Below are positions 1,977-62,821 of a stretch of DNA of 64,000 nt, one piece after another; positions within the stretch are counted from its first letter, which is position 1; each line of letters begins with the position of its first letter. The position numbers and the translations under genes were made by a program. Origin of the DNA: an uncultured Gammaproteobacteria bacterium (GTDB lineage: Bacteria; Patescibacteriota; Patescibacteriia; Magasanikbacterales; UBA922); the NCBI GenBank assembly GCA_964435035.1, contig CAYSXR010000001.1:212622-276621 (forward strand). The letters are read 5' to 3'. The notes below the pieces were generated by a model. That model was not told where the DNA came from. It saw nothing but the letters and a program-made list of their open reading frames with translations, and did not search any database.

Positions 1977-4900
1977 ATGAATGATGTAATTAAATTCGGC
2001 AAGAAGCTCTTTTCAGCTTCTGTAGTTGGAGTAACAATCGCTTGGAGCATGGGCCTTGCAGCCTTCGTTCCAGTAGCTGCTCAAGCTGCAACCTGTCCAG
2101 AACTCGAAGCCGGAGATTTGTTTAAAGCGACCGGTGCCTCAGCTGTATATTATCTTACCGCTGGCATGGAACGCGCATACTTCCCACATGTGGACGTATT
2201 CAACAGTTGGAACCTTAGTTTCAACGATGTAGTAACCGTATCTGGTGAATGTCTTTTTGCTTATCCAGCAGCAACCGTAGCCGGTATCAACTACCGACCT
2301 GGTTCACGATTGGTGAAGCTCTCAGATGCATCACCTGTATTCGCTGTTACCCCTGGTAACAAGCTCGTACAAGTTACGGGAGAATCAGCTGCAGCTCTCT
2401 ATGGAACAAACTGGACATCAGTTTTACGTGATGTTAGTCCATTCCACTGGGCAAGTTACACTGACACTCGAACCACCTGGAGCGAATCAAAGCCTCATGA
2501 TGGTCAGTTTGTAAAGAAGACTGGCGAAACAACTGTATACTTTGTAAAAGAAGGCAAACTCCATCAGGTTGATGGATCAAGTGTGCCTGACGTTCGCACA
2601 GTATCAGCTGCAACATTTGCAGCTCTTCCAATGGGAACGGGTTCAGTAACCGTAAGTTCTGCATACGCTAACCCAACTCAGGTTGATGGTAGCGCACCAG
2701 CGCCTACGACTGGAGCTCTCACGGTAAGTGTGGCTTCAAATACTTCAGCTTCAAAAGTTGTTCCAGGTGGAGCACAAGGAGTTGAGTATCTTGCTTTCAC
2801 CGTTCGAGCTGGCTCTTCAGCTGGTACCCTTGAACAGGTTACCTTGAAGCGCGCTGGAATCGGAAGTCGAAATGACTTTAGCAAAGTATACCTCTATCAC
2901 AATGGTATTCGCCTTGACAACGGTCGTTCACTTAGTACTGATGATGAAGTTACCTTCAATGTTAACAAATCTATTGCAGCAAACTCAACTGAAACATTTT
3001 GGGTAAAGGCTGACATGGACACATTGGTTGGTGATAGCACAGATGCAACTTCTGGAGATCAGAACTACTTTGAAATCAGAACTGCGTCTGATGTGAAAGC
3101 TACTGGTTCAGTAGGTGGATCATTCCCAGTTCGTGGTAATTCAATTTCGATTGGTGCACAAGATATTAGTACCATTACATTGCTTGGACAGGGTACTGGT
3201 TCTACTGCAAAAATCGGTGAAAATGGTGTAGTAGTAAGTGAATTTGATGCTACTGCTGCATCTACCGATGATGTAGAATTAACTTCTATCACTTTGAAGC
3301 AAAGAGGAACCGCTCCTGCAACTGTTCTCACTAATGTGAAATTGATGCAGGGTGGAACCACTGTTGCTATGGGTGTAGTAAGTGGAGACTGGGTAAAATT
3401 TGATTTCACCCAGAAAGTTACGATCGAAGCTGGCGACACCAAGAGATTCAAGGTGTATGCTGACCTCGGAATTGCTGACACTTCAGACACTATCGAACTC
3501 GTACTTGACGAGGCAGCTGATGTGATGGCATACAGTACTGATTTCCCAGGAAGTCTTGCTGGAGTAACTAATACGTACACCACCACACAGTCACTCTCAG
3601 TGACAATTGAAGGTGGAAAGATCAATGTTGATCTTGAAGGAACCAATGAAGATGTACGTGTAGACCAGAACGATGTGGTATTCGGTACATTCTCTGTTCT
3701 TGCAACTGCTGAAGATATTGACGTAGACGAAATGAAATTCGTTGTTATGCGTTCAAACTCAGCTGTATGTCTTGAAGATCTCCGCTTGCGCGACAAGAAC
3801 GGCAAAGGAAGTTACTCTCTTGACTACGATGCAACGTGTTCTACAGGAACTGATAATGCTACTACCACTGCAGAAAACATGATTCTTACCAAGGGAGTTA
3901 CCTATGAATTCGAAATCGTGGGTGATATTGCAAGTACTGCGGTAGATGCAGATGCATATTACGTTACATGGGCAGCTGCTAATGTAACTGCAGATGGTGT
4001 TTCTTCTGACAACACGGTTTCAGCAAATGACTTCTCATCAGCGTCCCTCACCGGTCCTACGATGACAGTTAGCCCTTCAAAACTCACTATTCGTCAGAGT
4101 GCTCTCAGTAACGAGACTGTAGTAAACGGAACCAAGAGTGTTCTTGTATACCGTGGTACTCTCGAAGCTGGAGCAACTTCTGATGTTACGGTGACTTCTC
4201 TTACTGTTGCTGCTACCTCTACCGCTCAAACTTGGGATGGTGTAGTTGATGGTTTGAAACTCTTCATCGACGGTGTACAGGTGTCAAATGACAATACTGT
4301 AACCAGCGAAGAAGCTCTCTTCACCAGCTTCAGTAAAGTTGTAAAAGCAGGATCATCAAACAAAGTAACCTTCGAAGTGTATGCTGACTTGACCGACGGC
4401 TCTACTGTCGAGATGGTACAGCTACAAGTAGAAGATGCTGACGCTACTGACGAGGATGACGACACTGTCACTGCAGTTAGCGCAACTAACGCTACTGTTT
4501 CTGATTCAAACCCAGTTGTAGGAAGTCGTATCCTTACCATTTCTGGTACTGGTACTCTTACTGCAGTATTGGATTCAAACTACACAGGTCTTCGCAATGA
4601 CTTCTACGCAATTGCAGGCACACAGAAACAGCTTGCAGGACGCGTACAGCTCAAAGCACTCTACGAAGATGTAGAGCTTGAGGATCTTGTAGTAACCGTA
4701 AGTTCATCATGGTCAAACACTTCAACTGTTGAAGCGACCTTTGACACATTGAACGTCTATTCAGACGCGGCAATGACTGACCTTCTCGGTACTGCTGACG
4801 TAACTCGTGGAACCGTGACTATCGAAAATGTAAACTTCGTTGTACCTGCTGACACTACCAAGTATCTTTATCTTGGTCTCAACCTCAACAGTGTTGGAAC

Positions 4901-5603
4901 TGGTGACAATGGAACCGCTACACCAAGTACTTCGATCTTCTTGGCCCTCTTGGATGCTGGAACTACAGCTCAGGGTGTATCATCAAATGATGATGTTGAC
5001 CCAACTGTAACTGAAACCGTTGGTAACGATATTATCGTTGCTGGTTCGACTGTATCGAATCTTGCTACCAGTTTTGCAGGTGGAAACCTTGCAGGTGGTG
5101 AACAAGTATTCTTTACCTTCGCAGTTACTGCTAACTCTGGTGTAAACACTGACAACAGTGGAGATGCCCTTGATCTTTACTTGACTCAGTTGAAACTATC
5201 ACTCTCAAGTGATGTAACGAGTGTTACAAGCACAAAACTTTGTCGTGTAAGTACTGGTAACTGTGTAAACATTTATCAGACCACTCCTATCACTTCAAGT
5301 ACAAACAACACAACCTTCTACACTCCAGGTGAATCAGGATACGTTGACGTAACTGAATTTACCAACAGTGATGATGAACGTGTTGACAATGGACAGACTG
5401 CACTCTATGAGCTCCGTGGTACATTCTCAGGAGTTACAGATAAGTATGCACAAGGAAGTATCCAGGACGTTAACGCTGGTGGTATCGTATGGGGCTATGA
5501 CCTCGGCGATGACGGCGTTCTCGACTATGTACATGCAAACTTGTTGCAATTGGAACCTCGATCATCTGGATACCCAGATATCACAGGTGCAGCATTGAAC
5601 TAA
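1977..5603 (+). CDS. Large secreted surface protein (1208 aa), Ser/Thr/Val/Ala-rich with repeated beta-rich modules; S-layer/adhesin-like
   Basis: N-terminal signal peptide (KKLFSASVVGVTIAWSMGLAAFVPVAAQAATCP). Composition is strongly T/S/V/A/G/D-biased with few charged residues. A long 377-bp leader precedes it and a strong terminator follows. Confidence 0.6.
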   Translation: MNDVIKFGKKLFSASVVGVTIAWSMGLAAFVPVAAQAATCPELEAGDLFKATGASAVYYLTAGMERAYFPHVDVFNSWNLSFNDVVTVSGECLFAYPAATVAGINYRPGSRLVKLSDASPVFAVTPGNKLVQVTGESAAALYGTNWTSVLRDVSPFHWASYTDTRTTWSESKPHDGQFVKKTGETTVYFVKEGKLHQVDGSSVPDVRTVSAATFAALPMGTGSVTVSSAYANPTQVDGSAPAPTTGALTVSVASNTSASKVVPGGAQGVEYLAFTVRAGSSAGTLEQVTLKRAGIGSRNDFSKVYLYHNGIRLDNGRSLSTDDEVTFNVNKSIAANSTETFWVKADMDTLVGDSTDATSGDQNYFEIRTASDVKATGSVGGSFPVRGNSISIGAQDISTITLLGQGTGSTAKIGENGVVVSEFDATAASTDDVELTSITLKQRGTAPATVLTNVKLMQGGTTVAMGVVSGDWVKFDFTQKVTIEAGDTKRFKVYADLGIADTSDTIELVLDEAADVMAYSTDFPGSLAGVTNTYTTTQSLSVTIEGGKINVDLEGTNEDVRVDQNDVVFGTFSVLATAEDIDVDEMKFVVMRSNSAVCLEDLRLRDKNGKGSYSLDYDATCSTGTDNATTTAENMILTKGVTYEFEIVGDIASTAVDADAYYVTWAAANVTADGVSSDNTVSANDFSSASLTGPTMTVSPSKLTIRQSALSNETVVNGTKSVLVYRGTLEAGATSDVTVTSLTVAATSTAQTWDGVVDGLKLFIDGVQVSNDNTVTSEEALFTSFSKVVKAGSSNKVTFEVYADLTDGSTVEMVQLQVEDADATDEDDDTVTAVSATNATVSDSNPVVGSRILTISGTGTLTAVLDSNYTGLRNDFYAIAGTQKQLAGRVQLKALYEDVELEDLVVTVSSSWSNTSTVEATFDTLNVYSDAAMTDLLGTADVTRGTVTIENVNFVVPADTTKYLYLGLNLNSVGTGDNGTATPSTSIFLALLDAGTTAQGVSSNDDVDPTVTETVGNDIIVAGSTVSNLATSFAGGNLAGGEQVFFTFAVTANSGVNTDNSGDALDLYLTQLKLSLSSDVTSVTSTKLCRVSTGNCVNIYQTTPITSSTNNTTFYTPGESGYVDVTEFTNSDDERVDNGQTALYELRGTFSGVTDKYAQGSIQDVNAGGIVWGYDLGDDGVLDYVHANLLQLEPRSSGYPDITGAALN

Positions 5604-7902: not shown

Positions 7903-8691
7903 ATGAAAACAGTAATTTTATGTGGCGGAACAGGAACGCGCATGAAAGAAGAAACAGAGTTCAAGCCTAAGCCGCTTGTGTTGGTTGGGGGTAAGCCGAT
8001 TTTGTGGCATATCATGAAAATTTATGCACATTATGGCTATAATGAATTCATTCTTGCATTGGGGTACAAGGGTGATATGATCAAACAGCACTTTCTCAAT
8101 TGGAGAACGTTACTCAATGATTTTACGCTTGATACCAAAAATCATGAATTCACCTTCCATAATAATGAATGTGATGACTTTAAAATTACCTTTGCAGAAA
8201 CTGGTCCAGATAGTTTGACTGGTGAGCGTGTACGGAGAATTAGAAAATATATCGGAGATGATCCAGAGTTCATGGTAACGTATGGTGATGGTGTTGCTGA
8301 TATTAATATTGCCGAACTCCTTGATTTCCACAAAAAACAAAACACGCCCGTAACAATTACTGGTGTTCGTCCTACGCATCGATTTGGACTCCTTGATATC
8401 GATCACACGTCAGAAAAAATTAAGGGTTTTTATCAGAAACACGTGACCAACGACACTGATAAAATTTCGAGTGATTATATTAATGGAGGATTTATGGTCT
8501 TGAACTCAAATGTCTTTGATCAGATTGAAGAAAATTCAATGATTGAGTCAATTTTTGAACCACTAGCTCGTAAAGATCAATTGTCAGTGTATAGACATAA
8601 GGGAATGTGGAAATGCATGGATACCTATAAAGAAGTTGAAGAATTAAATAAACAGTGGCACGCCGATCCTTTTTGGAAAGTGTGGGCATAA
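7903..8691 (+). CDS. rfbF: Glucose-1-phosphate cytidylyltransferase
   Basis: The N-terminus MKTVILCGGTGTRMKEETEFKPKPLVLVGGKPILWHIMKIYAHYGYNEF matches the RfbF/DdhA nucleotidyltransferase signature (GGxGTR, KPKP, ILWHIMK). Length is 262 aa. Confidence 0.85.
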   Translation: MKTVILCGGTGTRMKEETEFKPKPLVLVGGKPILWHIMKIYAHYGYNEFILALGYKGDMIKQHFLNWRTLLNDFTLDTKNHEFTFHNNECDDFKITFAETGPDSLTGERVRRIRKYIGDDPEFMVTYGDGVADINIAELLDFHKKQNTPVTITGVRPTHRFGLLDIDHTSEKIKGFYQKHVTNDTDKISSDYINGGFMVLNSNVFDQIEENSMIESIFEPLARKDQLSVYRHKGMWKCMDTYKEVEELNKQWHADPFWKVWA

Positions 8692-8706: not shown

Positions 8707-9681
8707 ATGAGTAGTTTGATACATCAAAATATACTAGTAACAGGGGGTGAGGGATTAGTTGGTTCGCATCTGGTAGAGGCTCTACTTCTAAAAAAACCAG
8801 GGAAATTAGTAGTGCTTTCTCGTGATCGGGACCCCCAATCATATTTTGCAGGATCTGGGCTTGAAAACAAAGTTATATGTGCATATGGTGATCTGAAAGA
8901 TAAGGAGCGGATATGTGATATCGTGACTGCGTATGAAATTAATTATATTTTTCATATTGGTGCGCAAGCTATTGTGCATACGGCATTTGTAAATCCATAT
9001 GAAACGCTGGCAAGTAATATTATGGGTACAATTCATGTGCTTGAAGCTGCTCGCCTATCTCCACAGGTAAAAGGTGTCGTGGTCGCATCAAGTGATAAAG
9101 CGTATGGAAAAGACTGTGTAGATGCAGTAGAAGATCATGAATTACGAGGTGATCATCCATACGATGTATCAAAATCATGCACCGATTTGATTGCACAGAC
9201 ATATGCCTCGACTTATGGAGTACCTGTCACGATTAGTAGGTGTGGAAATATTTTTGGTCCAGGAGATTTGCATTTCAATCGGATTATTCCCGGATCCATG
9301 AAGGCGTTCATTGAGAATGAAACGTTGGAGATACGCAGTAATGGTGAATTTGTGAGAGATTATGTATATGTCAAAGATGTGGTTGCAGGGTATGTACTTT
9401 TAGCTGAACAGATTGAACGCACCAAAGGCGAAGCATTTAATTTTAGTACGGGGTATAATTACAGTGTGATTAATCTGATAAAAAAAATATCAGAAGTTCT
9501 CGGATCTGAAATCAAATATACAATTGTAAATAATCAAAAAAATGAAATTCCAGAGCAGAGTCTGAATTATGAAAAAGCAGTACAGGTATTAGGCTGGAAA
9601 TCCACGGTCTCTCTTGAACAATCACTACAGGAAACCTATAAGTGGTATTGTTCATATTTTAAAAAATATGAATCCCGCTGA
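8707..9681 (+). CDS. rfbG: CDP-glucose 4,6-dehydratase
   Basis: Extended SDR fold: VTGGEGLVGSHL Rossmann motif and SSDKAYG...YDVSK catalytic Tyr/Lys. Length (324 aa) and position right after rfbF fit. Confidence 0.8.
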   Translation: MSSLIHQNILVTGGEGLVGSHLVEALLLKKPGKLVVLSRDRDPQSYFAGSGLENKVICAYGDLKDKERICDIVTAYEINYIFHIGAQAIVHTAFVNPYETLASNIMGTIHVLEAARLSPQVKGVVVASSDKAYGKDCVDAVEDHELRGDHPYDVSKSCTDLIAQTYASTYGVPVTISRCGNIFGPGDLHFNRIIPGSMKAFIENETLEIRSNGEFVRDYVYVKDVVAGYVLLAEQIERTKGEAFNFSTGYNYSVINLIKKISEVLGSEIKYTIVNNQKNEIPEQSLNYEKAVQVLGWKSTVSLEQSLQETYKWYCSYFKKYESR

Positions 9682-10477
9682 ATTAAAAAAAGAAGCCCGT
9701 GAAATAAGAAAAAAGATTTTGAAGATGATTACCAAATCAAAAAGCTCCCATATCGGATCATGTTTTAGTATTGTTGATATAGTGACCGTACTCTATAATG
9801 AAACGCTTTCTATTTCATCGCATGACGATCCGGACCGTGATATATTTATTTTAAGTAAAGGTCACGCGGCTGCAGCACTGTATGCCACGCTCGCACAACG
9901 TAATTTTTTTTCTTCTGAAATTCTCGATTCGTATTCGGAAGATGGGTCGCTGTTGGCAGGGCATGTGATAAAGGGCTGTGTACCAGGATTAGAGGCAACT
10001 GTAGGTTCACTGGGGCACGGATTCCCGATGGTGGGCGGTTTTGCGCTTGCAAATAAAGGGAATACCAGGAAGTTCTACTGTTTGGTAGGGGATGGTGAGT
10101 GTAATGAGGGATCTATCTGGGAGGCAGCAAACTTTTGTAGTCAATTCAAACTGAATAATCTCACCGTCATTATTGATTGCAATAAACAACAGGGTATGGG
10201 GTATACCACGGATATTATGAATATGGATAATATGAAAGAGCGCTGGAGCGCATGTGGGTGGGAAACCATAGAGGTTGATGGGCATAATTTTGATGAACTA
10301 AAAAAAGTTTTTGCGTATTCCTGTAGCCGGACGAGTAATCAGCCATTGGCAATAATTGCGCACACCATAAAAGGAAAAGGAATTTCATGGATGGAAGATA
10401 GGATCGAATGGCATTATCGGCCACCAACGGATGAGGAATTAAAAAAAGCATTACTAGAAATTGAGGAAATTGTATGA
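9668..10477 (+). CDS. Transketolase, N-terminal (ThDP/pyrophosphate-binding) subunit
   Basis: SKGHAAAALYATLA, GSLGHG and the ThDP motif GDGECNEGSIWEA are present. The start is moved to the ATG at 9668 (MNPAELKK), overlapping the rfbG stop by 14 nt. Confidence 0.8.
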   Translation: MNPAELKKEAREIRKKILKMITKSKSSHIGSCFSIVDIVTVLYNETLSISSHDDPDRDIFILSKGHAAAALYATLAQRNFFSSEILDSYSEDGSLLAGHVIKGCVPGLEATVGSLGHGFPMVGGFALANKGNTRKFYCLVGDGECNEGSIWEAANFCSQFKLNNLTVIIDCNKQQGMGYTTDIMNMDNMKERWSACGWETIEVDGHNFDELKKVFAYSCSRTSNQPLAIIAHTIKGKGISWMEDRIEWHYRPPTDEELKKALLEIEEIV

Positions 10478-11397
10478 GAAATACGGTTATTAATGCAATT
10501 CATGAAGCAGCGAAGTTGGATGCAAACATAGTATTCATTACTGGAGACTTGGGTTATTCAGTGATTGAAAAATTTCAAGCTGAATTGCCTGATCAGGTTA
10601 TCAATACCGGAATCGCCGAACAAAACATGATGGGAGTTGCTGCGGGGATGGCTCTTGCAGGCAAAAAAGTGTTTGTATATAGCATCGTGCCATTTGCCAC
10701 CATGCGATGTTTTGAACAAATAAGAGTAGATGTGTGCTACCAGAATCTTGATGTGACAATTATTGGTGTGGGGGGTGGATTTGCTTATGGAACACTAGGG
10801 ACAACGCATTTTGGAAGTGAGGATCTTTCACTCATGCGCTCACTACCAAATATGAAAGTGGTTGCTCCTGCTGATCCAAAAGAAGCAGAGATTTTGTCTA
10901 AACAGATACTGAACGAACGAGGTCCCTGGTACATTCGTCTTAATCGAGGAGGTGAAAAGCAGCTTACTCATGAAGACATTGGTAATACTAAGATTGGTGT
11001 AGGATCAGTCATGAGAAGTGGAACAGAGGTCACTTTATTTTCAATCGGCGCAATTACTGATATTGCTCTCCAGGCGAGTGAGGTGTTAGGAAAAGAGGGA
11101 ATTAGTGCAGAAGTAGTCCATCTACACACCTTAAAACCCTTGGATACAGAAATAATTGTATCAAGAAGTCAGTCACGCAAAGCTCTCGTCACTATAGAAG
11201 AGCATTCTATTATTGGGGGTTTAGGTTCGGCAGTATCAGAAGTGCTTGCAGAGAAAGGAAACGCTGTGCCATTCGAGCGGATTGGGATGAGAGATATATA
11301 TCTCGATTGTATAGGGAAACAGGATTTTTTGAGAATGAAAGCGGGGATATCGGTTGAAGTGATTGTATCAACGGTAAAAAAACTATGCCAAAAATAA
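10474..11397 (+). CDS. Transketolase, C-terminal (pyrimidine-binding) subunit
   Basis: ITGDLGYS, GIAEQNMMGVAAGMALAGK and the FGSEDLSLMRSLPNMKVVAPADPKEAE motifs are present. Its ATG overlaps the stop of the N-terminal subunit (ATGA). Confidence 0.8.
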   Translation: MRNTVINAIHEAAKLDANIVFITGDLGYSVIEKFQAELPDQVINTGIAEQNMMGVAAGMALAGKKVFVYSIVPFATMRCFEQIRVDVCYQNLDVTIIGVGGGFAYGTLGTTHFGSEDLSLMRSLPNMKVVAPADPKEAEILSKQILNERGPWYIRLNRGGEKQLTHEDIGNTKIGVGSVMRSGTEVTLFSIGAITDIALQASEVLGKEGISAEVVHLHTLKPLDTEIIVSRSQSRKALVTIEEHSIIGGLGSAVSEVLAEKGNAVPFERIGMRDIYLDCIGKQDFLRMKAGISVEVIVSTVKKLCQK

Positions 11398-14372: not shown

Positions 14373-14405
14373 AGGCACCTAGAATTACTAGGTGCCTGTG
14401 TTGTT
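14373..14405. terminator. Bidirectional rho-independent terminator between convergent genes
   Basis: Stem AGGCACCTAG / CTAGGTGCCT with loop AATTA (14373–14397), flanked by AAAAAAAG upstream and GTGTTGTTT downstream. Confidence 0.6.
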
Positions 14406-14432
14406 TCGGCGTACAGTGACCTCGGAGAAGTA

Positions 14433-15047
14433 TTACTTCAGTCCGATTTCGATCAGTTGACGCTCGAAGTTCGGGGCATCGGTGAACACCTCGGCTCTGA
14501 TGCCGAAATCACGTGCCGCTTCGACCAGTCGAGGAAGGTCATCGAAGAAGACAGTCTCCTGCGGGAGAACTCCGGCGAGGTCGACGGCTGCCTGGAAGAA
14601 CGCAGGCTCAGGTTTGTAGAGCCGGTACTCGTGGGACAGCAGGTGGTGGTCGAACTTCTGGAGGAGTAGGATCCGGGGGTAGATCCATTCCCAAGCGATA
14701 CCATTCACGTTCGAGAGCAGGAGAAGCTTCACGCGTCCGACGAGTGAGTCGATCAGGGGAAGTACTGCGTCGTGGATCGTGAAGTGACAGGTCCAGAGAT
14801 CGATGAATTCGTCCATGGTGAGAGTGATTCCGTACTCCTTGCAGAATGCTTCGCGGATGGCGTCACCCTCGAGGTCGCCGCGATTCACACCTTGCCAGAA
14901 GGCGCTATCCTTGCTCGTGACGAAGTGTCGAATGCGATCAATCGAGACACCCGTCTTCTCGGCCATTGCTGGGAAGAGCTTGCCCTCATCGTCGTGGAAG
15001 ATGAGTACATTGCCGAGGTCGAAGATTACGGCTTTTGGAGGATTCAT
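14433..15047 (-). CDS. HAD-superfamily hydrolase (subfamily IA-like phosphatase)
   Basis: HAD motif I AVIFDLGNVL, a motif II SN and a motif IV FFDDLPRLVEAARDFG are present. Length is 204 aa and GC is high. Confidence 0.7.
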   Translation of the reverse strand: MNPPKAVIFDLGNVLIFHDDEGKLFPAMAEKTGVSIDRIRHFVTSKDSAFWQGVNRGDLEGDAIREAFCKEYGITLTMDEFIDLWTCHFTIHDAVLPLIDSLVGRVKLLLLSNVNGIAWEWIYPRILLLQKFDHHLLSHEYRLYKPEPAFFQAAVDLAGVLPQETVFFDDLPRLVEAARDFGIRAEVFTDAPNFERQLIEIGLK

Positions 15048-15223
15048 AGGTATCCTTTGGTGAGTTATGGCGTTATATGACCAAACACTTTACTTAAACT
15101 ACCACATAAATAATAGGAGGGTCAAATATTGACGTTTTTGGTAGTTTATGATAAGTTGCTCTATCTTTTCAAACCGCAGTGGGTGGAAGGATAGACAAGT
15201 CTAAGATAAGGAGGAGTACCCCC

Positions 15224-15808
15224 ATGGGTGCAAAGAATCCACTGACCCGTGAAGAATGGCTCATCCTGTGTGAGCAGATGAAGGACGTCGATCTGACGAA
15301 TCTCGGTCGCGAGGGTCGGGCGCTCATCGCGCAGGTCGTGAACGTGGTTCCGGACGACGAGCCCTTCGGCCAGTCGCTCTTCGATGCACTGACCTATGTC
15401 GCGGGCTGTTCGCCGGCTTTCGAAGGCGGACTCGCTCGCAAGAAGGATGGGCGTGTGCAGATCTATCTGCGTCAGCGTTCGATGAACGAGTCGGCCTATC
15501 CGGGCGAGTGGCATCTGCCTGGCACCTTCTTCCGTAAGGGAGAGCAGCCTATCGCGGTCGCGCGTCGGCTCTGCAAGTCCGAGTTCGAGGGGGTCGTGGT
15601 CAAGAGCATCCTGCACCTCGAAGACTTCTTCGTTGACGAGGCTCGCGGGAACATCGAGTCCAAGCTCTACGCGATCGAGGTCGAAGGTGACCCGACCGGG
15701 AAGAGCGGGAAGTGGTTCGACCTCGAGGACGTGCCGTCGCCATTGGTCGATCACCACGCCGAGAAGCTCATCCCACGGCTCCTCAAGTACATGGGCGAGG
15801 TGCGCTAA
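15224..15808 (+). CDS. Nudix-fold protein with degenerate Nudix box (high-GC copy)
   Basis: WHLPGTFFRKGEQPIAVARRLCKSEFEG aligns to the Nudix box (WxFPGGxxExGExxxxAxxRELxEExG), but REL is RRL and EE is SE. It is clearly homologous to the adjacent low-GC ORF at 15927. The start is set at the ATG at 15224, which has a strong AAGGAGG SD, rather than the listed 15179. Confidence 0.5.
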   Translation: MGAKNPLTREEWLILCEQMKDVDLTNLGREGRALIAQVVNVVPDDEPFGQSLFDALTYVAGCSPAFEGGLARKKDGRVQIYLRQRSMNESAYPGEWHLPGTFFRKGEQPIAVARRLCKSEFEGVVVKSILHLEDFFVDEARGNIESKLYAIEVEGDPTGKSGKWFDLEDVPSPLVDHHAEKLIPRLLKYMGEVR

Positions 15809-15889
15809 TACAAAGCGCCTCACACTCACGACAATGTTCCGTCCATCATCTCCTAAAGGGGGTGGTGGACGGGACTCATAAATTAACTA

Positions 15890-15911
15890 GGCAACAGAAT
15901 TGCCTTTTTTT
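15890..15911 (+). terminator. Rho-independent terminator after the high-GC Nudix-fold gene
   Basis: GGCAA-CAGAA-TTGCC hairpin followed by TTTTTTT. A second imperfect stem (CCATCATCTCC...GGGGGTGGTGG) lies just upstream. Confidence 0.55.
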
Positions 15912-15926
15912 GTTTGAAATGATAGG

Positions 15927-16550
15927 ATGAGAGCATATTTTAGCCAAATTGTTATGCCAAAAACATCCTCAAAAAAGGCAAAGATGCAGAGTACAATTTC
16001 TGAGAAATTAGAACATTTTGGTATTACACCTCATGAAGTGATTGAGCTTTTTGAGAGTCTTGTAGAAAACACATGGAAAGAAAAGGATAAAGAGCTTATA
16101 CATCCGGGTAATTCTCTTGATAAGAGATTATTTGAAGCAATTGCAAAATTAGGCATCTCAGTAGCACTCGAAGCAGTACTTTTTCGTACCAAAGGAGAAA
16201 AGGTAGAAGTTTTTATGACGAAGCGAGGAAAAGATGAAAGTTTTCCCGGGGAGTGGCATTGTCCAGGCAGTGTGTTTCGTCCAGGAGAGTTTCCTCATAA
16301 TGTCCTAGCGCGGCTTGCAAAACAAGAATTTAAAACAAAAGTTGTTCTCGAAAGTGATTGTGTAGCTGATGTGTTTGTCAAAGAAATGCGAGGATGGTTT
16401 TTGTCACGAGTGTATCTGGTAAAGGTTGTAGGAAAGCCGACTTCAAAAGGAAAATGGTTTTCAGTTACCAAATTGCCAAAAGATACGGTGGCACATCATA
16501 AAAATTTTGTAATTCCAAAAGCACTGAAGGAATATAAAAAAATAAAATAA
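15927..16550 (+). CDS. Nudix-fold protein with degenerate Nudix box (low-GC native paralog of 15224–15808)
   Basis: FPGEWHCPGSVFRPGEFPHNVLARLAKQEFKTKV aligns with the high-GC copy over about 110 aa (GEWH.PG..FR.GE, KGKWF, VP, HH). The real start may be the internal ATG at 15984. Confidence 0.5.
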   Translation: MRAYFSQIVMPKTSSKKAKMQSTISEKLEHFGITPHEVIELFESLVENTWKEKDKELIHPGNSLDKRLFEAIAKLGISVALEAVLFRTKGEKVEVFMTKRGKDESFPGEWHCPGSVFRPGEFPHNVLARLAKQEFKTKVVLESDCVADVFVKEMRGWFLSRVYLVKVVGKPTSKGKWFSVTKLPKDTVAHHKNFVIPKALKEYKKIK

Positions 16551-16553
16551 GCT

Positions 16554-17864
16554 ATGGATGACAAATTAAAACAACTATTGATTGAAGATTATAATGCCAG
16601 ATTCTTAGCTAAGGAATTTGTCCCGGGTGTATCAGCTGTTCCTGTATCGGGGAAAGTTTTTGATTCTGAAGAGATCATTAATGCAACCGAAGCAGTTCTC
16701 GAGGGTTGGTGGACTGATGGAAAATATACTGCCATGTTTGAGCATCGTATGGCGCAGTGGCTTGGTGTGAAGTATGGATGTTTTGTAAATTCAGGCTCAT
16801 CTGCAAATCTGATTGCAGTAACAGCACTTACCTCGATGAAGTTGCAGGACAAAAGATTGAAACCCGGTGATGAGGTCATTACTGTTGCAGCAGGATTTCC
16901 AAGCACCGTAAATCCGATTGTGCAGAATGGATTGGTGCCTGTGTTTGTTGATGTGGATCTCGGTACATACAATGCAAATATTGAGGCGATTCAAAAGGCA
17001 ATTTCTCCAAAGACTCGAGCAATCATGATTGCTCACACTCTTGGTAATCCGTTTGATCTGGGAGCAATCAAAGAATTGTGTGAGAAACATGATTTCTGGC
17101 TTATTGAAGATAACTGTGATGCTCTGGGAGCTACGTTTAATGGTAAAAAAACAGGCACATTTGGACATATTGCTACCTGTAGTTTTTATCCCGCACATCA
17201 TATTACGACTGCAGAAGGAGGAATGGTATTTACGAATAACTCAAGACTGTACAAAATAATTGAATCAATCAGAGATTGGGGACGTGATTGCTGGTGCGAG
17301 ACAGGTAAGGATAACACCTGTCAAAAACGTTTTTGTTGGCAGCTTGGTGAATTGCCCTATGGATATGATCATAAATATATTTATTCAGAAATGGGCTATA
17401 ACCTGAAAGCTACTGATATCCAGGCGGCGCTTGGGCTTGCACAATTTGCAAAACTCGATTCTTTTGTTGAAAAAAGAAGAGAGAACTTTAACACACTGTA
17501 CGAAGGATTAAAAAAATTCGAAGAATATTTTATATTACCTTCCTGGCAAAAGGAAGCAAATCCAAGTTCGTTTGGGTTCCTTCTAACGGTCAAAGATACC
17601 GCGCCTTTTACACGTGATGAGATTGTACAGCACTTGCAAGAGAAAAAAATAGGTACCAGATTTTTGTTTGCAGGAAATATTTTAAGACAGCCCTATTTTG
17701 TTGATAGGAAAATTGAATATCGTGTGGTAGGGGAATTAAAAAATGCTGATACAATTGTAAAAAATACCTTCTGGATCGGTGTATATCCAGGGCTTACGGG
17801 TGAAATGCTTGAGTATATTATTAAGATGTTTGAAGAGTTTATTGCTACACGTCGAGCTATATGA
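16554..17864 (+). CDS. rfbH: CDP-4-keto-6-deoxy-D-glucose 3-dehydrase (E1; PMP-dependent, [2Fe-2S]) of the 3,6-dideoxyhexose pathway
   Basis: DegT/DnrJ-family fold, but the PLP-lysine position is His (SFYPAHHITTAEGG). The Cys-rich DWGRDCWCETGKDNTCQKRFCWQLGELPYGYDHKY segment is characteristic of E1/RfbH. Length is 436 aa. Confidence 0.75.
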   Translation: MDDKLKQLLIEDYNARFLAKEFVPGVSAVPVSGKVFDSEEIINATEAVLEGWWTDGKYTAMFEHRMAQWLGVKYGCFVNSGSSANLIAVTALTSMKLQDKRLKPGDEVITVAAGFPSTVNPIVQNGLVPVFVDVDLGTYNANIEAIQKAISPKTRAIMIAHTLGNPFDLGAIKELCEKHDFWLIEDNCDALGATFNGKKTGTFGHIATCSFYPAHHITTAEGGMVFTNNSRLYKIIESIRDWGRDCWCETGKDNTCQKRFCWQLGELPYGYDHKYIYSEMGYNLKATDIQAALGLAQFAKLDSFVEKRRENFNTLYEGLKKFEEYFILPSWQKEANPSSFGFLLTVKDTAPFTRDEIVQHLQEKKIGTRFLFAGNILRQPYFVDRKIEYRVVGELKNADTIVKNTFWIGVYPGLTGEMLEYIIKMFEEFIATRRAI

Positions 17865-55523: not shown

Positions 55524-55570
55524 AATTTGTATTATTGCTTTTTTGTTCCTTGTCACTTGTTAGTTAATAT

Positions 55571-55643
55571 GGCCCGTTCGTCTAGTGGCTAGGACGCTAG
55601 GTTCTCATCCTAGTAACAGGGGTCCGATTCCCCTACGGGCTAC
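55571..55643 (+). tRNA. tRNA-Glu (anticodon CUC)
   Basis: Hand-folded cloverleaf. Acceptor stem GGCCCGT/ACGGGCT, D-arm GTCT/GGAC, anticodon stem CTAGG/CCTAG with loop TTCTCAT (anticodon CTC), T-arm AGGGG-TCCGATT-CCCCT, discriminator A. A 3' CCA is not encoded (the sequence reads CCCA). Confidence 0.75.
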
Positions 55644-57120
55644 CCAAGGGGAAATTTTCTCGCGACAGCACGATGCTGAACCACTTTTTCGGCTCGGTTG
55701 ACACGAGTTTCCCGATTGCAGAAATGTCCGAATATAGGGATTTGAGGAGTGTCCGACGCTTCTCTTTTTCGTATTTCGGGTACTGATCAGCCAATAGATC
55801 AAAGACCTTCACGATTCGCGCACGGGTCGGCGTCTGCGACGCGATGTCATCGGTCTGAAGTTGTTGCTCGAGCTTTCTCGTTCCGAGCATCAGCTCGGTC
55901 TTCATCTTCGTGTAGAGCTGTTCCTCAATGATGCCGCCGATGAATGACCGAGTGAGGCGCTCCAGCGCCTCGTTCTTCTCGTTGAGTTCAAGGCGGGCAC
56001 GGGCGCGACCGCGCTCAACGTCGCGCTCTTCATCGCCGTACATGCGTTCGACGACATCGAGCACGAGGTCGCGCTCCTCCGACGAGAGGATCATGCGCTT
56101 GAGGTCGCGTTCAATCACCGCGTCGAGCAGCTCTTCGCGGATGCAGACGGTCGGGTGCCCTCGTGTGTGACAGCGGTAGTAGACGACCTTTCGCTTGTGC
56201 TCGCCGATGAGGAAGCGCTTGCAGTGACCGCATCGAGACATCCGCTGGTACAGGTACTTTGGCTCCGCGATGAAGAGGTGCGGGTGTTTCCGCCGTTGAC
56301 GGATTTGCCTGACGACCTCGAAGATCCCGGCCGGTACGATCGCCTCGTGTTGGCCGGCGAAGAGCTCACCGCGGTAGGGGATGAAGCCTGCGTAGAACGG
56401 GTTGTCGAGCATCTTCGCGATCCTCGACCGGGTTTTGAACGCGCCGCCCTTGCTCTTCAACCCAAGCTCGCGGCCGACCTCGGTCAGCTGGTCGAGGGTA
56501 TAGGCACCGGTCGCGTAGCGCTCGAAGAGCTCCAGGATGCTCGGGGCGCGCTCCGGGTCCGGGATCTTCCTGCCGCGTTCGCCCTTCGGCGTTTCTGGCG
56601 GCGGGTTCAAGTACCCGAAGGGGGCGTTTCTCGGCCAGTATCCTTGTCTCATCCGTCCGAGGTTGCCCTTCAGGATCTCGCTCCTGAGGTTCCGGATGAA
56701 GTGAACCGCAACCGCGGCGAGCATGTCCATGGTGAGACGGCCGCCCGAGTCGGCACTGTCGAGACCTTCGGACGCGAAGGCGATGTAGTGCCCGGCGTCC
56801 ATGAGTTCCGAGATCGTCACCCAATCCCGGAGGTTCCGACTCGACCGGTCAACTTTGTGGAACACGACGCCGTCGGCGTCGCCCTTACCGAGTCGCTTCA
56901 CGAGGTCGACGAAACCCGTTCGACCTGCCTTGGCTGCGGACTCGACGTCTTCGATGACGTCTTTGACGACAAGGCCACGACGGGCGCAGAACTCCTGGAT
57001 GATGCGGCGCTGCTCAAAGAGCGAGGCGCCATGCACCTGGTCGTCGGAGGAAACCCGGACGTAGCAGAACACGGTTGAGGGCGCTGCACGACGGGTGCCA
57101 AATGTTGAAAAATGTGGCAT
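55633..57120 (-). CDS. Large serine recombinase (resolvase-type catalytic domain plus recombinase domain, zinc ribbon and coiled coil)
   Basis: Catalytic domain VFCYVRVSSDDQ (Ser nucleophile) ... VFHKVDRSSRNLRDW. Recombinase domain GYWPRNAPFGY. Zinc ribbon CGHCKRF...YYRCHTRGHPTVC. The start is set at the ATG (MPHFSTF) at 57120, giving about 495 aa. Confidence 0.8.
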   Translation of the reverse strand: MPHFSTFGTRRAAPSTVFCYVRVSSDDQVHGASLFEQRRIIQEFCARRGLVVKDVIEDVESAAKAGRTGFVDLVKRLGKGDADGVVFHKVDRSSRNLRDWVTISELMDAGHYIAFASEGLDSADSGGRLTMDMLAAVAVHFIRNLRSEILKGNLGRMRQGYWPRNAPFGYLNPPPETPKGERGRKIPDPERAPSILELFERYATGAYTLDQLTEVGRELGLKSKGGAFKTRSRIAKMLDNPFYAGFIPYRGELFAGQHEAIVPAGIFEVVRQIRQRRKHPHLFIAEPKYLYQRMSRCGHCKRFLIGEHKRKVVYYRCHTRGHPTVCIREELLDAVIERDLKRMILSSEERDLVLDVVERMYGDEERDVERGRARARLELNEKNEALERLTRSFIGGIIEEQLYTKMKTELMLGTRKLEQQLQTDDIASQTPTRARIVKVFDLLADQYPKYEKEKRRTLLKSLYSDISAIGKLVSTEPKKWFSIVLSRENFPLGSP

Positions 57121-57331
57121 AATATCTGAATTACAGAATGACAGAGGGTCCTTCGAGCTTATCGTGTCCGCTCGATTCGTAACACCGGCACAAGCGCCCC
57201 CCTCGTTCGCGAGTTGCGGTGTTTTTTTGTTTGAGATATCCACATGCTGTGCGCTCGGGCGAGAAACTTGACCCGGGCATTTGTGCCCCTGACAGTATCG
57301 CGCCCTCTTGCAGTACGATTTCCACACGCCT

Positions 57332-57544
57332 ATGCGACATCTCCAATTTGACGACGAGCAACTCGCCAAGAAACTTGCAGCCGCCTATCCGACACTTTCG
57401 GCGGATGAACGGACCGCAGTCTTGGTCGAGCTCATGCTCTTCGTGCGCGCACTCGCCGGCCTGGTCGAGCGGGATACCTCCCGCGGTCCGGGCGAGGACG
57501 CCGAATTCCCTTCCAAGTCGGAGCCTGCCGCACCCGGCACTTAA
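57332..57544 (+). CDS. Small hypothetical protein (70 aa), divergent from the recombinase; speculative recombination directionality factor
   Basis: MRHLQFDDEQLAKKLAAAYPTLSADERTAVLVELMLFVRALAGLVE has a protein-like amphipathic composition, unlike the surrounding Arg-rich frames. No family was assigned. Confidence 0.2.
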   Translation: MRHLQFDDEQLAKKLAAAYPTLSADERTAVLVELMLFVRALAGLVERDTSRGPGEDAEFPSKSEPAAPGT

Positions 57545-58593
57545 GTCACGTAAACATTGCATGTGCATCGTCTATGAGGTCTCGCCGGGGCGGCCGCGTA
57601 CCACGCGGCCGAAGGATTCCATATCCAAATCAGTGGCGTGTCATCCGCCGTCTTCGAGGGTTCACGCAACGCGATGTTGCGCGGTTCCTTGGTCATCTCG
57701 ACACGTGTCAGTGAGGGTCAGGAAGCGCTGTAGGACGGCGAGTAGCGCGTAACGCCGAGTTTGTGGCCGGCGAGTTGAGACAGGCGTAGCCGGGAGGTCT
57801 CGAAGTCGGGGAGCTGGCGCGCTAACGCCGGCCCCCCTGGACGGGGCGACTACAGTCGTCGCCTCGTCCACGCGGAGGATGCCGCAAGCCGCGCAGGACG
57901 GCCAGGGCTTCGAGACGGAGGCCGCTGGACACCGCCCGTCGCTACTCCTGCCGCGCCTGCGGAAGACACGTCACGATCTGCCCGCGCTGCGATCGGGGCA
58001 ACATCTACTGCCTCGGCTGCGCCCCGAAGCGCCGGACGGAGAGGCTGCGGCGCGCTCGGAGGACGTATCGCCGCACGCCCGAAGGTCGTCGCGAACATCG
58101 TGACGCCGAGCGGCGCAGGCGCAGGCGAAAGGCGGCTCCGCACGCAATCGTGGGGGATCTGGGTTCCGCGGTCGCGTCGTCGGTCGCAGGCTCGGACCTG
58201 CCCTCGACCTCCAACCCGGTCGAGGCAGAGGTGACCGATGTATCGATGGAAGATCGCCGTGGAACCGACGGCCACGAACACGAAGCTGCTGATGACGGAC
58301 CCGGACGGCAACGAGCTCCTCAAGGCGGCGCTGCCGTCGACGGCCAACCACCCACGCGCTCTCTTGACCCTGCTCGAGGGCCTGGCGCTGTGGGCCGGCC
58401 AGCCTCTCACCGCTGCGATCTCTGCGGGGCCGTCGTTGCCGAGGCACGTCGACTCGGCCCTCTTCGGAGCGGATCTCTTTCCGTGCGACAGCGTGCTCGT
58501 GCACTACGAAGTGGTCGAGGGCCGCCGACGTCGCCGGACTCTGCGCGGCGTGGGTGACTTCCGGCAGCTGCGCCTCGTGCAGCGGAGGTGGGC

Positions 58594-60093
58594 ATGATCT
58601 CCGACGAGCTGAAATCGAAGATCCGCCGCCTCTACCATGCCGAGCAGTGGCCGATCGGCACGATCGCGAGGGAGCTCACCCTGCACCACAGCACGGTGCG
58701 GCGCGCGCTGCTCGGCGATGGGGTGCCGCTCGCGTCGCTGCCGACGCGCAAGTCGAAACTCGATCCGTACCTGCCGTTCGTCATCGACGTGCTGGACAAG
58801 TACCCGGAGGTCACGGCGAGCCGGGTCTACGACATGGTGCGGGAGCGCGGCTACACGGGCGCGCGCGACCACTTCCGCGCGCTGGTCGCTCGCCACCGCA
58901 AGCCCAAGGCGGCCGAGGCTTTCCTGCGCCTGTCGACCGTTCGGGGCGAAGAGGCCCAGGTCGACTGGGGCCACTTCGGCCACATCATGATCGGCGGCGC
59001 GCGCCGGCCGCTCGTGGCGTTCGTGATGGTGCTGTCGTGGTCGCGCTGGGCGTGGCTGCGCTTCGGCGCGGACATGCGCATGGGCAGCTTCCTCGAGCAC
59101 CACGAGGCGGCATTTCGGGCCTGGGGCGGCGTGCCGCGCGTGATCCTCTACGACAACCTGAAGTCGGCGGTGACCCAGCGCATCGGCGACGCGATCGTGT
59201 TCAACGCGGACCTGTCGGCGTTCGCGAGCCACTACGGCTATGACGCGCGCCCGGTCGCGCCCTATCGCGGCAACGAGAAGGGGCGGGTGGAGCGGACCAT
59301 TCGTGATGTGCGCACCTCGTTCTTCGCTGCGCGCACCTGGGCCGATCTCGCAGACCTGAACGCGCAGGCCGAGCGATGGTGTCGTGAGGTGCGTGGGCTC
59401 CGCACGCATCCCGACGACCGCACGCTCACGGTGGGTGCCGCGTTCGCCGAGGAGCGGGAGGTGCTTCGCGCGCTCCCCGCCGACGTGTTCCCGGTCGCCG
59501 ACCGCGTCGAGGTGAAGGCCGGCAAGACGCCGTACGTGCGCTTCGACGGCAACGACTACAGCGTCCCGCACGATCGTGTTCGGCGGTCGCTGACCGTCAT
59601 GGCGACGAGCGACACGGTGCGCGTCATGGATGGCCAGGACGTCATCGCCATGCACACGCGCTCGTGGGACAAAGGCGCGCAGATCGAGGACGCAGCGCAC
59701 ATCGCGGCTCTCGTCGAGCGCAAGCGCGAGGCCCGCAACGCGCGTGGGCTCAATCGTGTGTTCGTGGCGGTGCCGGTCGCTCAGGAGTTCGTGCGGCGGC
59801 TCGCCGAGCGCGGCGGCAACATCGGCAATGCCGTCGTTCGCCTGGGGGAGATCCTCGACGCCTTCGGTGCCGAGGAGCTCGCGATGTCCGTCGATGAAGC
59901 GATCGCGATGGACGCGCCGCACATCGCGGCGGTTCGTCAGATCCTCGACCGGCGTCGGCGGGACGTGGGGCTCCCGGCGCCGATCGCCGTGGCCCTGCCC
60001 GATGACCCGCGCATTCGAAACATGGTCGTGCGGCGGCCCTCGCTCGAAGCCTACGATGCGCTGAAGGAACCCACGGAGGACTGTCATGAGTGA
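58594..60093 (+). CDS. istA: IS21-family transposase IstA
   Basis: N-terminal HTH (IGTIARELTLHHSTVRRAL). Integrase-core DDE region (AQVDWGHF...LSWSRWAWLRF...VILYDNLKSAV...YRGNEKGRVER). About 500 aa. Confidence 0.85.
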   Translation: MISDELKSKIRRLYHAEQWPIGTIARELTLHHSTVRRALLGDGVPLASLPTRKSKLDPYLPFVIDVLDKYPEVTASRVYDMVRERGYTGARDHFRALVARHRKPKAAEAFLRLSTVRGEEAQVDWGHFGHIMIGGARRPLVAFVMVLSWSRWAWLRFGADMRMGSFLEHHEAAFRAWGGVPRVILYDNLKSAVTQRIGDAIVFNADLSAFASHYGYDARPVAPYRGNEKGRVERTIRDVRTSFFAARTWADLADLNAQAERWCREVRGLRTHPDDRTLTVGAAFAEEREVLRALPADVFPVADRVEVKAGKTPYVRFDGNDYSVPHDRVRRSLTVMATSDTVRVMDGQDVIAMHTRSWDKGAQIEDAAHIAALVERKREARNARGLNRVFVAVPVAQEFVRRLAERGGNIGNAVVRLGEILDAFGAEELAMSVDEAIAMDAPHIAAVRQILDRRRRDVGLPAPIAVALPDDPRIRNMVVRRPSLEAYDALKEPTEDCHE

Positions 60094-60829: not shown

Positions 60830-61080
60830 GCAACGGGACTGCAGCTCGCCGCCGTCAACAGCGGCGTCGAGCGCTACTCGCCGTTTTCACGCGCTCTTCG
60901 ACCACCGCCTACAACACGGACTCGTACTACGACATCGAGCGGGGAACGCGGTTCCCGCGAGCCCGCAACCTCATGTTGCTGCTCCGACTGTTCGGGGTCA
61001 CGCTCGAGCAGGTCTATCCTGACCTTGCTTGGGGAGCGGATCGCGACATCGACGCGCTCCGACATCGCCTTACCCGATGA
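60826..61080 (+). pseudogene. Possible truncated XRE-type HTH gene fragment immediately downstream of IS21
   Basis: YDIERGTRFPRARNLMLLLRLFGVTLEQVY resembles the third helix and C-terminal part of an XRE HTH. The N-terminal part is not HTH-like. Confidence 0.2.
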
Positions 61081-61319
61081 CACGTACCCTCAACCCTATG
61101 AAACGAAACCCTACGGGTCGCCTGAAGCACGAGCTGCTGCACTCCATCCTCCGCGATGAGCGCTGGCATTCGACCAGTGAACTTGTCCGCCGCGTCGGCC
61201 ACACCTTCGCCGGCGCCAAGTGGAAGCTCACTGGTTACGGCTACTCGATCGAGAAGCGACGTCACCCGACGAAGCCGCGCCAGTGGCAGTACCGCCTCAC
61301 CGATCAGGCGGCGGGCTAG
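61077..61319 (+). CDS. Small basic hypothetical protein (80 aa), possible winged-helix DNA-binding protein
   Basis: MTRTLNPMKRNPTGRLKHELLHSILRDERWHSTSELVRRVGHTF... No family assigned. Confidence 0.2.
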   Translation: MTRTLNPMKRNPTGRLKHELLHSILRDERWHSTSELVRRVGHTFAGAKWKLTGYGYSIEKRRHPTKPRQWQYRLTDQAAG

Positions 61320-62801: not shown

Positions 62802-62821
62802 TTAGTCATAATCTCTATCGA

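Follow-up and report, generated by a model that had tools for sequence, protein, structure and literature searches.

Persistent GC elevation confined to the reading frame in a Nudix family linked to CDP-dideoxyhexose glycan clusters

Atypical GC content is routinely taken as the mark of recent horizontal transfer, and a GC-rich block in the low-GC surface-glycan operon of an uncultured Gammaproteobacteria bacterium (GTDB lineage Patescibacteriota, Magasanikbacterales, UBA922) raises the question of whether it can always be read in this way. The block occupies positions 14406-15850 of a 64,000-nucleotide stretch of DNA (hereafter the window; GenBank assembly GCA_964435035.1, contig CAYSXR010000001.1, forward strand, positions 212,622 to 276,621) and carries two divergent genes, one for a phosphatase of the HAD superfamily (HAD) and one for a Nudix-fold protein (NudA), the latter being followed by a low-GC paralog, NudB. 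The original prediction had taken HAD and NudA as one foreign cassette that landed beside the native counterpart of its Nudix gene. This import reading holds for HAD and fails for NudA, which behaves as an old resident with stationary GC and a conserved native promoter. On balance, the two GC-rich genes appear to differ in history, NudA being resident and HAD likely imported, and the point of note is a persistent, ORF-confined GC elevation (ORF, open reading frame) across the whole Nudix family.

Over 14406-15850 the GC content is 0.557, and in 300-bp sliding windows it rises from about 0.35 to 0.55-0.62 between 14350 and 15850 and then comes down again. The background, taken from 600-bp windows over the remainder of the first 55.6 kb, has a mean of 0.386, a standard deviation of 0.032 and a maximum of 0.477, so that the block, about 5-7 standard deviations over background, is the only part of 1-55.6 kb with GC above 0.50. 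By part, GC is 0.559 in the HAD ORF, 0.610 in the NudA ORF and 0.386 in the 176-bp intergenic region between them, and GC at third codon positions (GC3) is 0.71 in HAD and 0.78 in NudA as against 0.25-0.38 in neighbour genes. The block is, in other words, two GC-rich ORFs split by ordinary AT-rich control DNA. Windowed GC and GC3 thus bear out the predicted high-GC block in a low-GC glycan operon, while the figure of about 60% GC given for it is right for NudA and somewhat high for the whole. The identities proposed for the two genes are supported by Pfam Hydrolase and Pfam NUDIX matches, and the proposed terminators and AT-rich divergent promoter by hairpins at 14373-14397 (the left limit of the block) and 15889-15905 and by promoter-like sites in the divergent intergenic region. 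In addition, three Logan assemblies (SRR12762287, SRR12762285 and SRR12762283) match the window at 100% identity over 5.9-20.6 kb, with both junctions covered; because three separate assemblies carry identical sequence, a chimera is excluded to the extent that assemblies can tell, as had been predicted.

The GC elevation of NudA is shared by its family, which comprises 349 clusters at 50% identity, mainly from Patescibacteria, and of which, as of its GC anomaly, a literature search found no report. Pattern searches yielded 19 loci from GTDB species genomes (four metagenome-assembled genomes, MAGs, titled 'uncultured Gammaproteobacteria', 14 of Patescibacteria, Parcubacteria, Saccharibacteria or Staskawiczbacteria, and one 'bacterium') and 52 from JGI metagenomes, which were collapsed to 55 clusters at 80% identity. 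The Nudix gene is GC-richer than the remaining locus in 53 of the 55 clusters, mostly from Patescibacteria, with a median difference of +0.12. Its GC3 excess likewise has a median of +0.12 and is greater than 0.2 in 13 of 40 loci; where at least five other ORFs are available, it is the top GC3 ORF in 22 of 35 loci, 3.5 being expected by chance (Wilcoxon p=3e-7). The neighbours used as controls differ in GC3 by just +0.03 (RfbF), -0.01 (RfbG) and 0.00 (RfbH). Averaged over 25 loci, the GC excess begins at the ORF start and is gone within 60 bp of the ORF end, and it is also found in the 60% GC hosts of loci L015 and L016 (0.81 vs 0.72-0.73). No excess is seen in the clade of NudB, in one of Staskawiczbacteria type and in a few more, and in two-copy tandems (the window, L006, L007, L013, L040, L056 and L069) one copy is GC-rich and the other lies at or near background. 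Moreover, between pairs of loci the Nudix gene diverges in step with rfbG, its neighbour (Pearson 0.64), and in L019, L040 and L056, whose RfbG proteins are just 77-83% identical, GC3 stays near 0.50 over a background of 0.29-0.38. Two related 46% GC MAGs (L010, 8542-10480, and L011, 7145-8869) have the Nudix gene in three tandem copies (GC3 0.67, 0.42 and 0.55); the middle, NudB-type copy of L011 has lost about 200 bp, and a divergence hot spot in this pair was considered and dropped, identity being uniform at about 86% along the locus.

Within this family, NudA is an old gene. A protein search among 5.8 billion sequences returned only six NudA-type proteins, whose lineages all carry an ORF of 57-64% GC within flanks of 33-40% GC, and in four of the six these flanks, at about 0.35-0.40 GC, include NudB. 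The order acyltransferase, HAD, NudA, NudB, RfbH recurs in L006 (GCA_965084955.1), and L007, L008 and L009 have acyltransferase, NudA and NudB, HAD being absent. L086 has NudA then NudB, again without HAD; of two short contigs, L085 carries NudA then NudB with low-GC downstream DNA and almost nothing upstream, and L084 carries low-GC upstream DNA and NudA, without HAD. At L013, where the flanking proteins are 91-95% identical to those of the window and acyltransferase and HAD are both absent, homology with the window ends at 15184 and restarts at 15836, and the NudA slot in between holds a different GC-rich Nudix gene (GC 0.58, GC3 0.71) only 37% identical to NudA. Orthologs of NudB were found in L006, L007, L013, L085 and L086. 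A recent islet is expected to be absent from close relatives and to have homologues of matching composition elsewhere; NudA, by that measure, is no islet, being present in six related lineages. These observations do not support the single two-gene cassette of the original prediction, as the six diverged lineages with NudA include four that lack HAD, and L013 carries another allele behind the same promoter and leader. The six NudA genes differ by a pairwise synonymous divergence (dS) of 0.57-1.31 with a ratio of nonsynonymous to synonymous divergence (dN/dS) of 0.19-0.38, and the latter is 0.10-0.19 for NudB; both genes are under purifying selection.

The slot has also seen exchange of alleles. 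Between the window and L007, NudA is 79% identical at the amino-acid level (dS 0.57), NudB 69% (dS 1.79) and the acyltransferase 67%, and between the window and L006 the corresponding values are 74%, 87% and 93%; the locus closest to the window by NudA is thus L007, yet L007 is the most distant by NudB and acyltransferase, and the ranking of L006 is reversed. Nucleotide identity between the window and L006 is accordingly a mosaic, with 95-99% in acyltransferase and HAD, 69-86% in NudA and 78-90% in NudB. As read from these comparisons of sequence, NudA alleles move among related low-GC lineages, and since the low-GC promoter, leader and terminator travel along or serve as crossovers, the donors are low-GC relatives. 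The vehicle of this shuffling would be homologous recombination across the conserved flanks, which are the promoter/leader and the terminator. In a neighbour-joining tree, NudA groups with the allele of L013 and further single-copy genes of high GC, and NudB with the middle copy of L010; because the two branch apart, the duplication predates the lineage, as far as a rough neighbour-joining tree can tell.

What surrounds the NudA frame is native. A promoter scan placed a -35 box, TTGACG, at 15129-15134 and an extended -10 box, TGnTAAGTT, at 15149-15157; a leader hairpin of 12 pairs, three of them with compensatory changes, follows at about 15163-15191, and a Shine-Dalgarno sequence, GGAGG, lies at 15210-15214 (AGGAGG ahead of the start codon). 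The promoter (TTGAC-N17-TGnTAAGTT), hairpin and Shine-Dalgarno sequence are common to the window, L006, L007, L013, L084 and L086, that is, to the six lineages with upstream DNA, L013 counted and L085 having too short a contig for the comparison, and in L013 promoter and leader are kept though the ORF behind them is the 37%-identical allele. The GC-rich part is therefore the reading frame only, set in a regulatory frame that is native, AT-rich and conserved. The leader hairpin may be a cis-regulatory leader; neither it nor the block had an Rfam match at gathering or E<=1 thresholds. On the minus strand, a promoter-like site for HAD spans 15172-15143. An 18-nt inverted repeat, 83% complementary (15087-15104 / 15139-15156), brackets the -35 box and could be an operator.

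If NudA were an import in the course of adjusting to its host, its codon positions should disagree, since GC3 of an ameliorating gene is expected to lag below GC1, the GC content at first positions. By regressions linking codon-position GC to genome GC, reportedly those of Muto-Osawa and of Lawrence & Ochman in 1997, the genome GC implied by GC1 and by GC3 of NudA agrees at 59-67%, and that implied by NudB is 33-43% with one outlier at 52%. All six NudA genes have a GC3 within 0.69-0.81 that does not lag behind GC1, and NudA is therefore without an amelioration signature; HAD likewise shows none. Outgroup-polarised third-position changes in NudA run from G or C to A or T (S>W) and back (W>S) at about 3.9:1; a singleton polarity test proved biased toward common-to-rare changes and was read only against the mirrored NudB control. 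That control, at genomic composition and presumably at equilibrium, gives W>S:S>W of about 3:1, so that about 3:1 is what parsimony bias produces under skewed composition, and decay of NudA to a GC3 of 0.3 predicts about 29:1 S>W:W>S. The substitution polarity of NudA is thus near stationary, a result that is supportive rather than decisive.

HAD presents a different picture. It is confined to the window and L006 lineages, two of the six that bear NudA, with 98.5% protein identity between them and within their 95-99% identical tract, and it is absent from L007, L013, the interval that separates NudA from its upstream gene in L084 and L086, and the short L085 contig. Its nearest relatives outside are 44-54% identical, and the two whose DNA was read sit in contigs of 67-69% GC with gene GC matching. 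HAD is thus what a recent islet is expected to be, absent in close relatives with homologues of matching composition, and the original claim that it is foreign is supported by these same facts. Because it is lineage-restricted and its relatives lie in GC-rich DNA, HAD was plausibly acquired horizontally from a GC-rich lineage, and would be a later insertion, of GC-rich ancestry, in one sub-lineage. High GC is no general trait of the HAD family, unlike the Nudix family. The insertion point has the terminator of the acyltransferase on one side and the promoter of NudA on the other; target-site duplications, repeats and mobile-element scars were looked for around HAD and none was found, and a mobile-element type of insertion leaving such marks was set aside on that inspection. 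The HAD relatives are GC-rich in amino-acid composition as well, the ratio of GARP to FYMINK amino acids having a median of 2.17 in them as against 0.92 in the window HAD. Genes near the two relatives (Ser/Thr kinase, PEGA, RCC1 and peptidase S46) give no positive pointer to an actinobacterial donor. As to its activity, HAD scores 45.7 bits against TIGR01509 (HAD-IA; cut-off 29.4), and its best equivalog is PRK09456, glucose-1-phosphatase (4.5e-19, 68.9 bits, below the cut-off of 295).

The reading that we favour by a modest degree is that NudA, resident and with its own transcription, belongs to an old tandem pair, and that its GC-richness is a family property kept in place. Its composition is like that of a genome of about 65% GC, the hosts being 30-45% GC and its own genome 39%. 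That a gene-specific compositional force holds the CDP-hexose-linked (CDP, cytidine diphosphate) Nudix family so far above host GC, over saturated divergence and in dozens of lineages, is put forward more tentatively, at somewhat short of even chances. Such a force would act on all codon positions: GC1, amino-acid composition (GARP/FYMINK 1.26 in NudA, 0.64 in NudB and a median of 1.24 over 147 family representatives) and GC3 are all shifted, and G-ending and C-ending codons of NudA are raised equally, for which reason the force is judged directional, and the pattern looks like a mutation-pressure-like or fixation-bias force rather than ordinary translational codon selection. Because allele exchange is evident, the preferred candidate would be GC-biased fixation, gene-conversion-like and tied to frequent exchange; a second candidate would be selection on nucleic-acid composition, for example rare codons that throttle the expression of a potentially wasteful hydrolase. 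Several points weigh on the other side. We know of no mechanism by which a single gene of a bacterium would be kept some 25 GC points higher than its genome; the acyltransferase is AT-rich although it lies in the recently exchanged tract (95-99% between the window and L006), and NudB, adjoining NudA, is also AT-rich, both of which weaken GC-biased conversion. In addition, the GC-rich HAD and a GC-rich mobile element in the same window demonstrate that GC-rich DNA does enter this genome, so unsampled donors are possible, the polarity test is a parsimony test with few sites and overlapping counts, and the neighbour-joining tree is rough and without support values.

Among the alternatives, the most serious is serial replacement of the slot from an unsampled GC-rich reservoir. 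The Nudix family would then be native to GC-rich organisms or mobile elements and enter low-GC genomes again and again, and the spread of the GC excess (0 to +0.45) would show how long each copy has been ameliorating, NudB and the genes of Staskawiczbacteria type being long-resident copies in which the process is complete. For it speak a GC3 excess that is almost never negative, slot alleles that have demonstrably been replaced, the GC shift of NudA amino acids as well, as expected after a long stay in GC-rich DNA, and the shown entry of GC-rich DNA into the genome. We nevertheless regard it as unlikely, because only 3 of about 55 family clusters lie in GC-rich DNA and the gene stands above background even there, because no close relative of the high-excess members in a GC-rich context was found in GTDB, the JGI metagenomes, IMG/VR or a library of 1.84e9 proteins, and because the native low-GC promoter and leader are kept, so that the donor DNA must share low-GC flanks; co-divergence with rfbG and near-stationary substitution polarity also speak against it. 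No relative was found in IMG/VR, and phage carriage was rejected on that ground. Considerably less credible still is the cassette of the original prediction, that is, HAD and NudA arriving together and recently from a GC-rich donor such as an actinobacterium, by homology-facilitated insertion beside NudB and perhaps in the course of replacing it. The adjacency of two GC-rich genes with correlated codon usage (r=0.68), the lack of an amelioration signature in either and the GC-rich integrative element at 55.6 kb of the same window can be cited for it. For NudA it is contradicted by the occurrence of NudA without HAD in L007, L084, L085 and L086 and of the other allele in L013, by a dS of 0.6-1.3 behind a shared native promoter and leader, and by the purifying selection on both paralogs. 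No GC-rich donor of NudA, actinobacterial or other, is in sight either: in a phmmer search of 1.84 billion protein representatives the one cluster with more than 50% identity was the NudA clade itself, all other full-length matches being at or below 45%, and none of the 19 GTDB species with the family is labelled an actinobacterium. NudA and NudB share no exact stretch of nucleotides longer than 9 nt, by which gene conversion or a homology anchor between them was rejected, and this, with an A/B split that by the rough neighbour-joining tree predates the lineage, speaks against the predicted homology-facilitated insertion or replacement. As to the suggestion that the donor was shared with the 55.6-kb element, HAD and NudA are indeed similar to the element in codon usage (r 0.62-0.79), but any GC-rich gene would be so.

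Two further explanations have very little in their favour. That the GC-richness serves a second function, an antisense gene or a structured RNA, is very improbable. A 222-aa antisense ORF (15161-15829, minus strand) does cover NudA in full, and in one assembly (L005, 454-1122, corresponding to these positions) the gene caller annotated it in place of NudA. The frame lies in codon register with NudA and is open merely because TTA, CTA and TCA codons are absent from NudA, it is broken in L006 and most family members, and the call in L005 is an artefact of the high GC3 of NudA; an overlapping antisense gene was therefore rejected. Folding of the NudA mRNA does not exceed that of shuffled controls (z=-1.36), and the mRNA has no Rfam match, which rejects a structured RNA, and among 4-mers and 6-mers none stands out from synonymous shuffles of NudA (best z=4.6 over thousands of k-mers), so that an embedded motif such as a Chi site, uptake sequence or methylation site, too, finds no k-mer beyond codon-usage expectation. 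An assembly or binning chimera, for which the sharp composition steps might be adduced, has the least chance of all and is held as refuted at the assembly level: besides the identical sequence in three separate assemblies, the same architecture is found in diverged genomes of other studies, and the ORFs are intact, under purifying selection and surrounded by native regulatory DNA.

The features of the locus are collected in Table 1. The operon is a CDP-dideoxyhexose glycan cluster that comprises RfbF, RfbG, a split transketolase, a reductase/epimerase, a GT2 glycosyltransferase, acyltransferase_3, HAD, NudA, NudB and RfbH, and the first 55.6 kb of the window are taken up almost wholly by genes of glycan biosynthesis, after which come pilT and a gene for a penicillin-binding protein. 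NudA and NudB align with 41% identity over 145 aa (E=3e-33), a longer stretch than the 110 aa from which their paralogy had been predicted; against Pfam NUDIX (cut-off 21.1 bits), NudA scores 30.1 and NudB 21.1, exactly at the cut-off. Gene calls for NudB are present in L001 and L006.

Table 1. Coordinates of features at the locus, as positions in the window
Feature	Position	Strand	Details
Bidirectional intrinsic-terminator hairpin (acyltransferase +, HAD -)	14373..14397		10-bp stem, 6 G-C pairs, T-runs on both strands; inverted repeat
HAD-IA phosphatase, YihX-like	14433..15047	-	Pfam Hydrolase 1.7e-10; TIGR01509 above cut-off
AT-rich divergent control region	15048..15223		NudA promoter, leader hairpin, Shine-Dalgarno, HAD promoter-like site
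NudA, GC-rich Nudix-fold gene	15224..15808	+	194 aa; GC 0.61, GC3 0.78; Pfam NUDIX 5.7e-7
Intrinsic terminator after NudA	15889..15912	+	Stem 15889-15905, then T-run; right limit of GC-rich block
NudB, low-GC paralog	15954..16550	+	198 aa from 15954, or 188 aa from 15984; GC 0.37, GC3 0.25; Pfam NUDIX 3.3e-4
RfbH (CDP-6-deoxy-4-hexulose 3-dehydrase)	16554..17864	+	NCBIfam PRK15407, 694.6 bits, cut-off 423
RfbF, glucose-1-phosphate cytidylyltransferase	7903-8691
RfbG, CDP-glucose 4,6-dehydratase	8707-9681

Elsewhere in the window, an integrative element of 63-70% GC at 55570-64000 adjoins a tRNA-Glu(CTC) gene (55570-55646) and carries genes for a large serine recombinase (55633-57369, minus strand), a probable IS21 IstA (58588-60093), IstB (60086-60829) and a Replic_Relax protein (61866-62801). 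PLSDB blastn gave no match for the GC-rich block or for this element, and a plasmid origin of either was rejected accordingly. A module swap is seen at 9668-11397 of the window, where the split transketolase corresponds to 2473-6179 of L006 with acetaldehyde dehydrogenase, a DmpG-like aldolase and a thiamine pyrophosphate enzyme, and where the L013 stretch does not align with the window; each of the swapped modules may provide a different donor for the side branch of a branched dideoxyhexose. Two large ORFs, 1977-5603 (1208 aa) and 367-1599 (410 aa), have no Pfam match, the former lying in a stretch of slightly raised GC (0.43-0.47).

The locus bears on how bacterial composition is interpreted, the routine inference from GC being right for HAD and apparently wrong for NudA. 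If the reading of NudA as a resident held at high GC is true, it is a warning for composition-based island finders, and it offers a tractable system in which to ask whether GC-biased conversion or selection for GC operates in bacteria, a question long debated, with the family as a natural experiment on the causes of bacterial GC content. The analysis also defines an uncharacterised Nudix family and bears on the regulation of dideoxyhexose surface glycans in organisms with few known regulators.

As for what these proteins do, NudA is a member of the Nudix superfamily (PF00293) by both profile and fold. Its AlphaFold model (pLDDT 75.8 overall and 80-92 in the Nudix domain) has three N-terminal helices followed by the Nudix fold, and Foldseek matches it with probability 1.00 to many Nudix structures, the best being AraR/NrtR ligand-binding domains, RenU and CDP-Chase. 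The canonical box, G-x5-E-x7-R-E-U-x-E-E-x-G-U, is reduced in NudA to E107-x7-R115-L116-x3-E120: across 16 aligned family sequences only E107, R115 and E120 of the canonical residues are kept, with Leu invariably in place of the Glu that follows the Arg and Ser or Gln in place of the first Glu of the EE pair. In most of about 60 loci the family gene has RfbG-like and RfbF-like genes as its flanks. From the reduced box of the Gmm type together with the position beside a nucleoside diphosphate (NDP)-hexose 4,6-dehydratase, NudA and NudB most likely hydrolyse a CDP-hexose, and GDP-mannose mannosyl hydrolase (GDP, guanosine diphosphate) probably has its CDP-hexose counterpart in this family. The Nudix pair would then drain or quality-control the CDP-sugar of the dideoxyhexose pathway, and the YihX-like HAD would drain its hexose-1-phosphate precursor. 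Fused two-domain proteins of 374-417 aa also occur in the family (P0141, P0148, P0149, P0151 and P0256); E-x7-R-x4-E has a single match, in one half only, in four of the five and none in P0256. Because fusions keep the box in one half and tandem pairs exist, the tandem paralogs possibly act as an A/B (pseudo)heterodimer. Membership in a defence system was rejected, as PADLOC gave nothing convincing, with no match for HAD or NudA and one weak match for NudB (candidate PDC-S07, 5.7e-6).

Of the known systems, the closest in setting is Gmm/WcaH/NudD of E. coli (PDB 1RYA), likewise a small Nudix protein in a surface-polysaccharide cluster beside an NDP-hexose 4,6-dehydratase (gene order gmd-fcl-gmm) and likewise with the reduced box E-x7-R-L-x3-E, the aligned boxes reading RLTMAE in Gmm, RLCKSE in NudA and RLAKQE in NudB with E107, R115, L116 and E120 invariant. 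Loss of box residues of the Gmm type goes with cleavage to NDP and free sugar, not to nucleoside monophosphate and sugar phosphate, and the products of Gmm itself are GDP and free sugar (PMC5389931). The two differ in pathway, which is GDP-hexose in E. coli and CDP-hexose here, and beyond the box no significant similarity is found (family profile vs 1RYA, E=0.9); the Nudix family has an extra N-terminal part of about 60 aa in three helices and occurs as tandem paralogs or fusions. Moreover, the column of His124, the catalytic base of Gmm, holds Gly, Lys or Ser in the family, Gly being the residue in NudA, which tells against the assignment. The regulators NrtR/AraR (PDB 3GZ5, 3GZ8, 5BS6 and 2FML) match the Nudix domain best in both sequence and structure, and their box is also degenerate, compatible with ligand binding rather than catalysis, but the NudA model lacks their C-terminal winged helix and ends at the Nudix helix, residues 176-192. 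CDP-Chase, the CDP-choline pyrophosphatase of Bacillus cereus (PDB 3Q4I), is the only full-length PDB match (202 columns, TMq 0.54) and resembles NudA in its size, about 200 aa, and in having the Nudix domain behind a helical N-terminal one; itself an asymmetric dimer with a CDP-linked substrate, it differs in having a canonical catalytic Nudix box and is 13% identical. HAD, for its part, resembles YihX, the alpha-D-glucose-1-phosphate phosphatase (HAD-IA) of E. coli, with 29% identity over 191 aa and the four motifs FDLGNV, LSN.N (LSNVN in the window), KPE and FFDD, although it falls below the NCBIfam equivalog cut-off, so that its substrate is only putative. Finally, the amelioration model of Lawrence & Ochman, with its atypical GC, atypical codon usage and sharp boundaries, fits HAD, whereas NudA departs from it by keeping an atypical composition across saturated divergence and many hosts with no lag of GC3 behind GC1.

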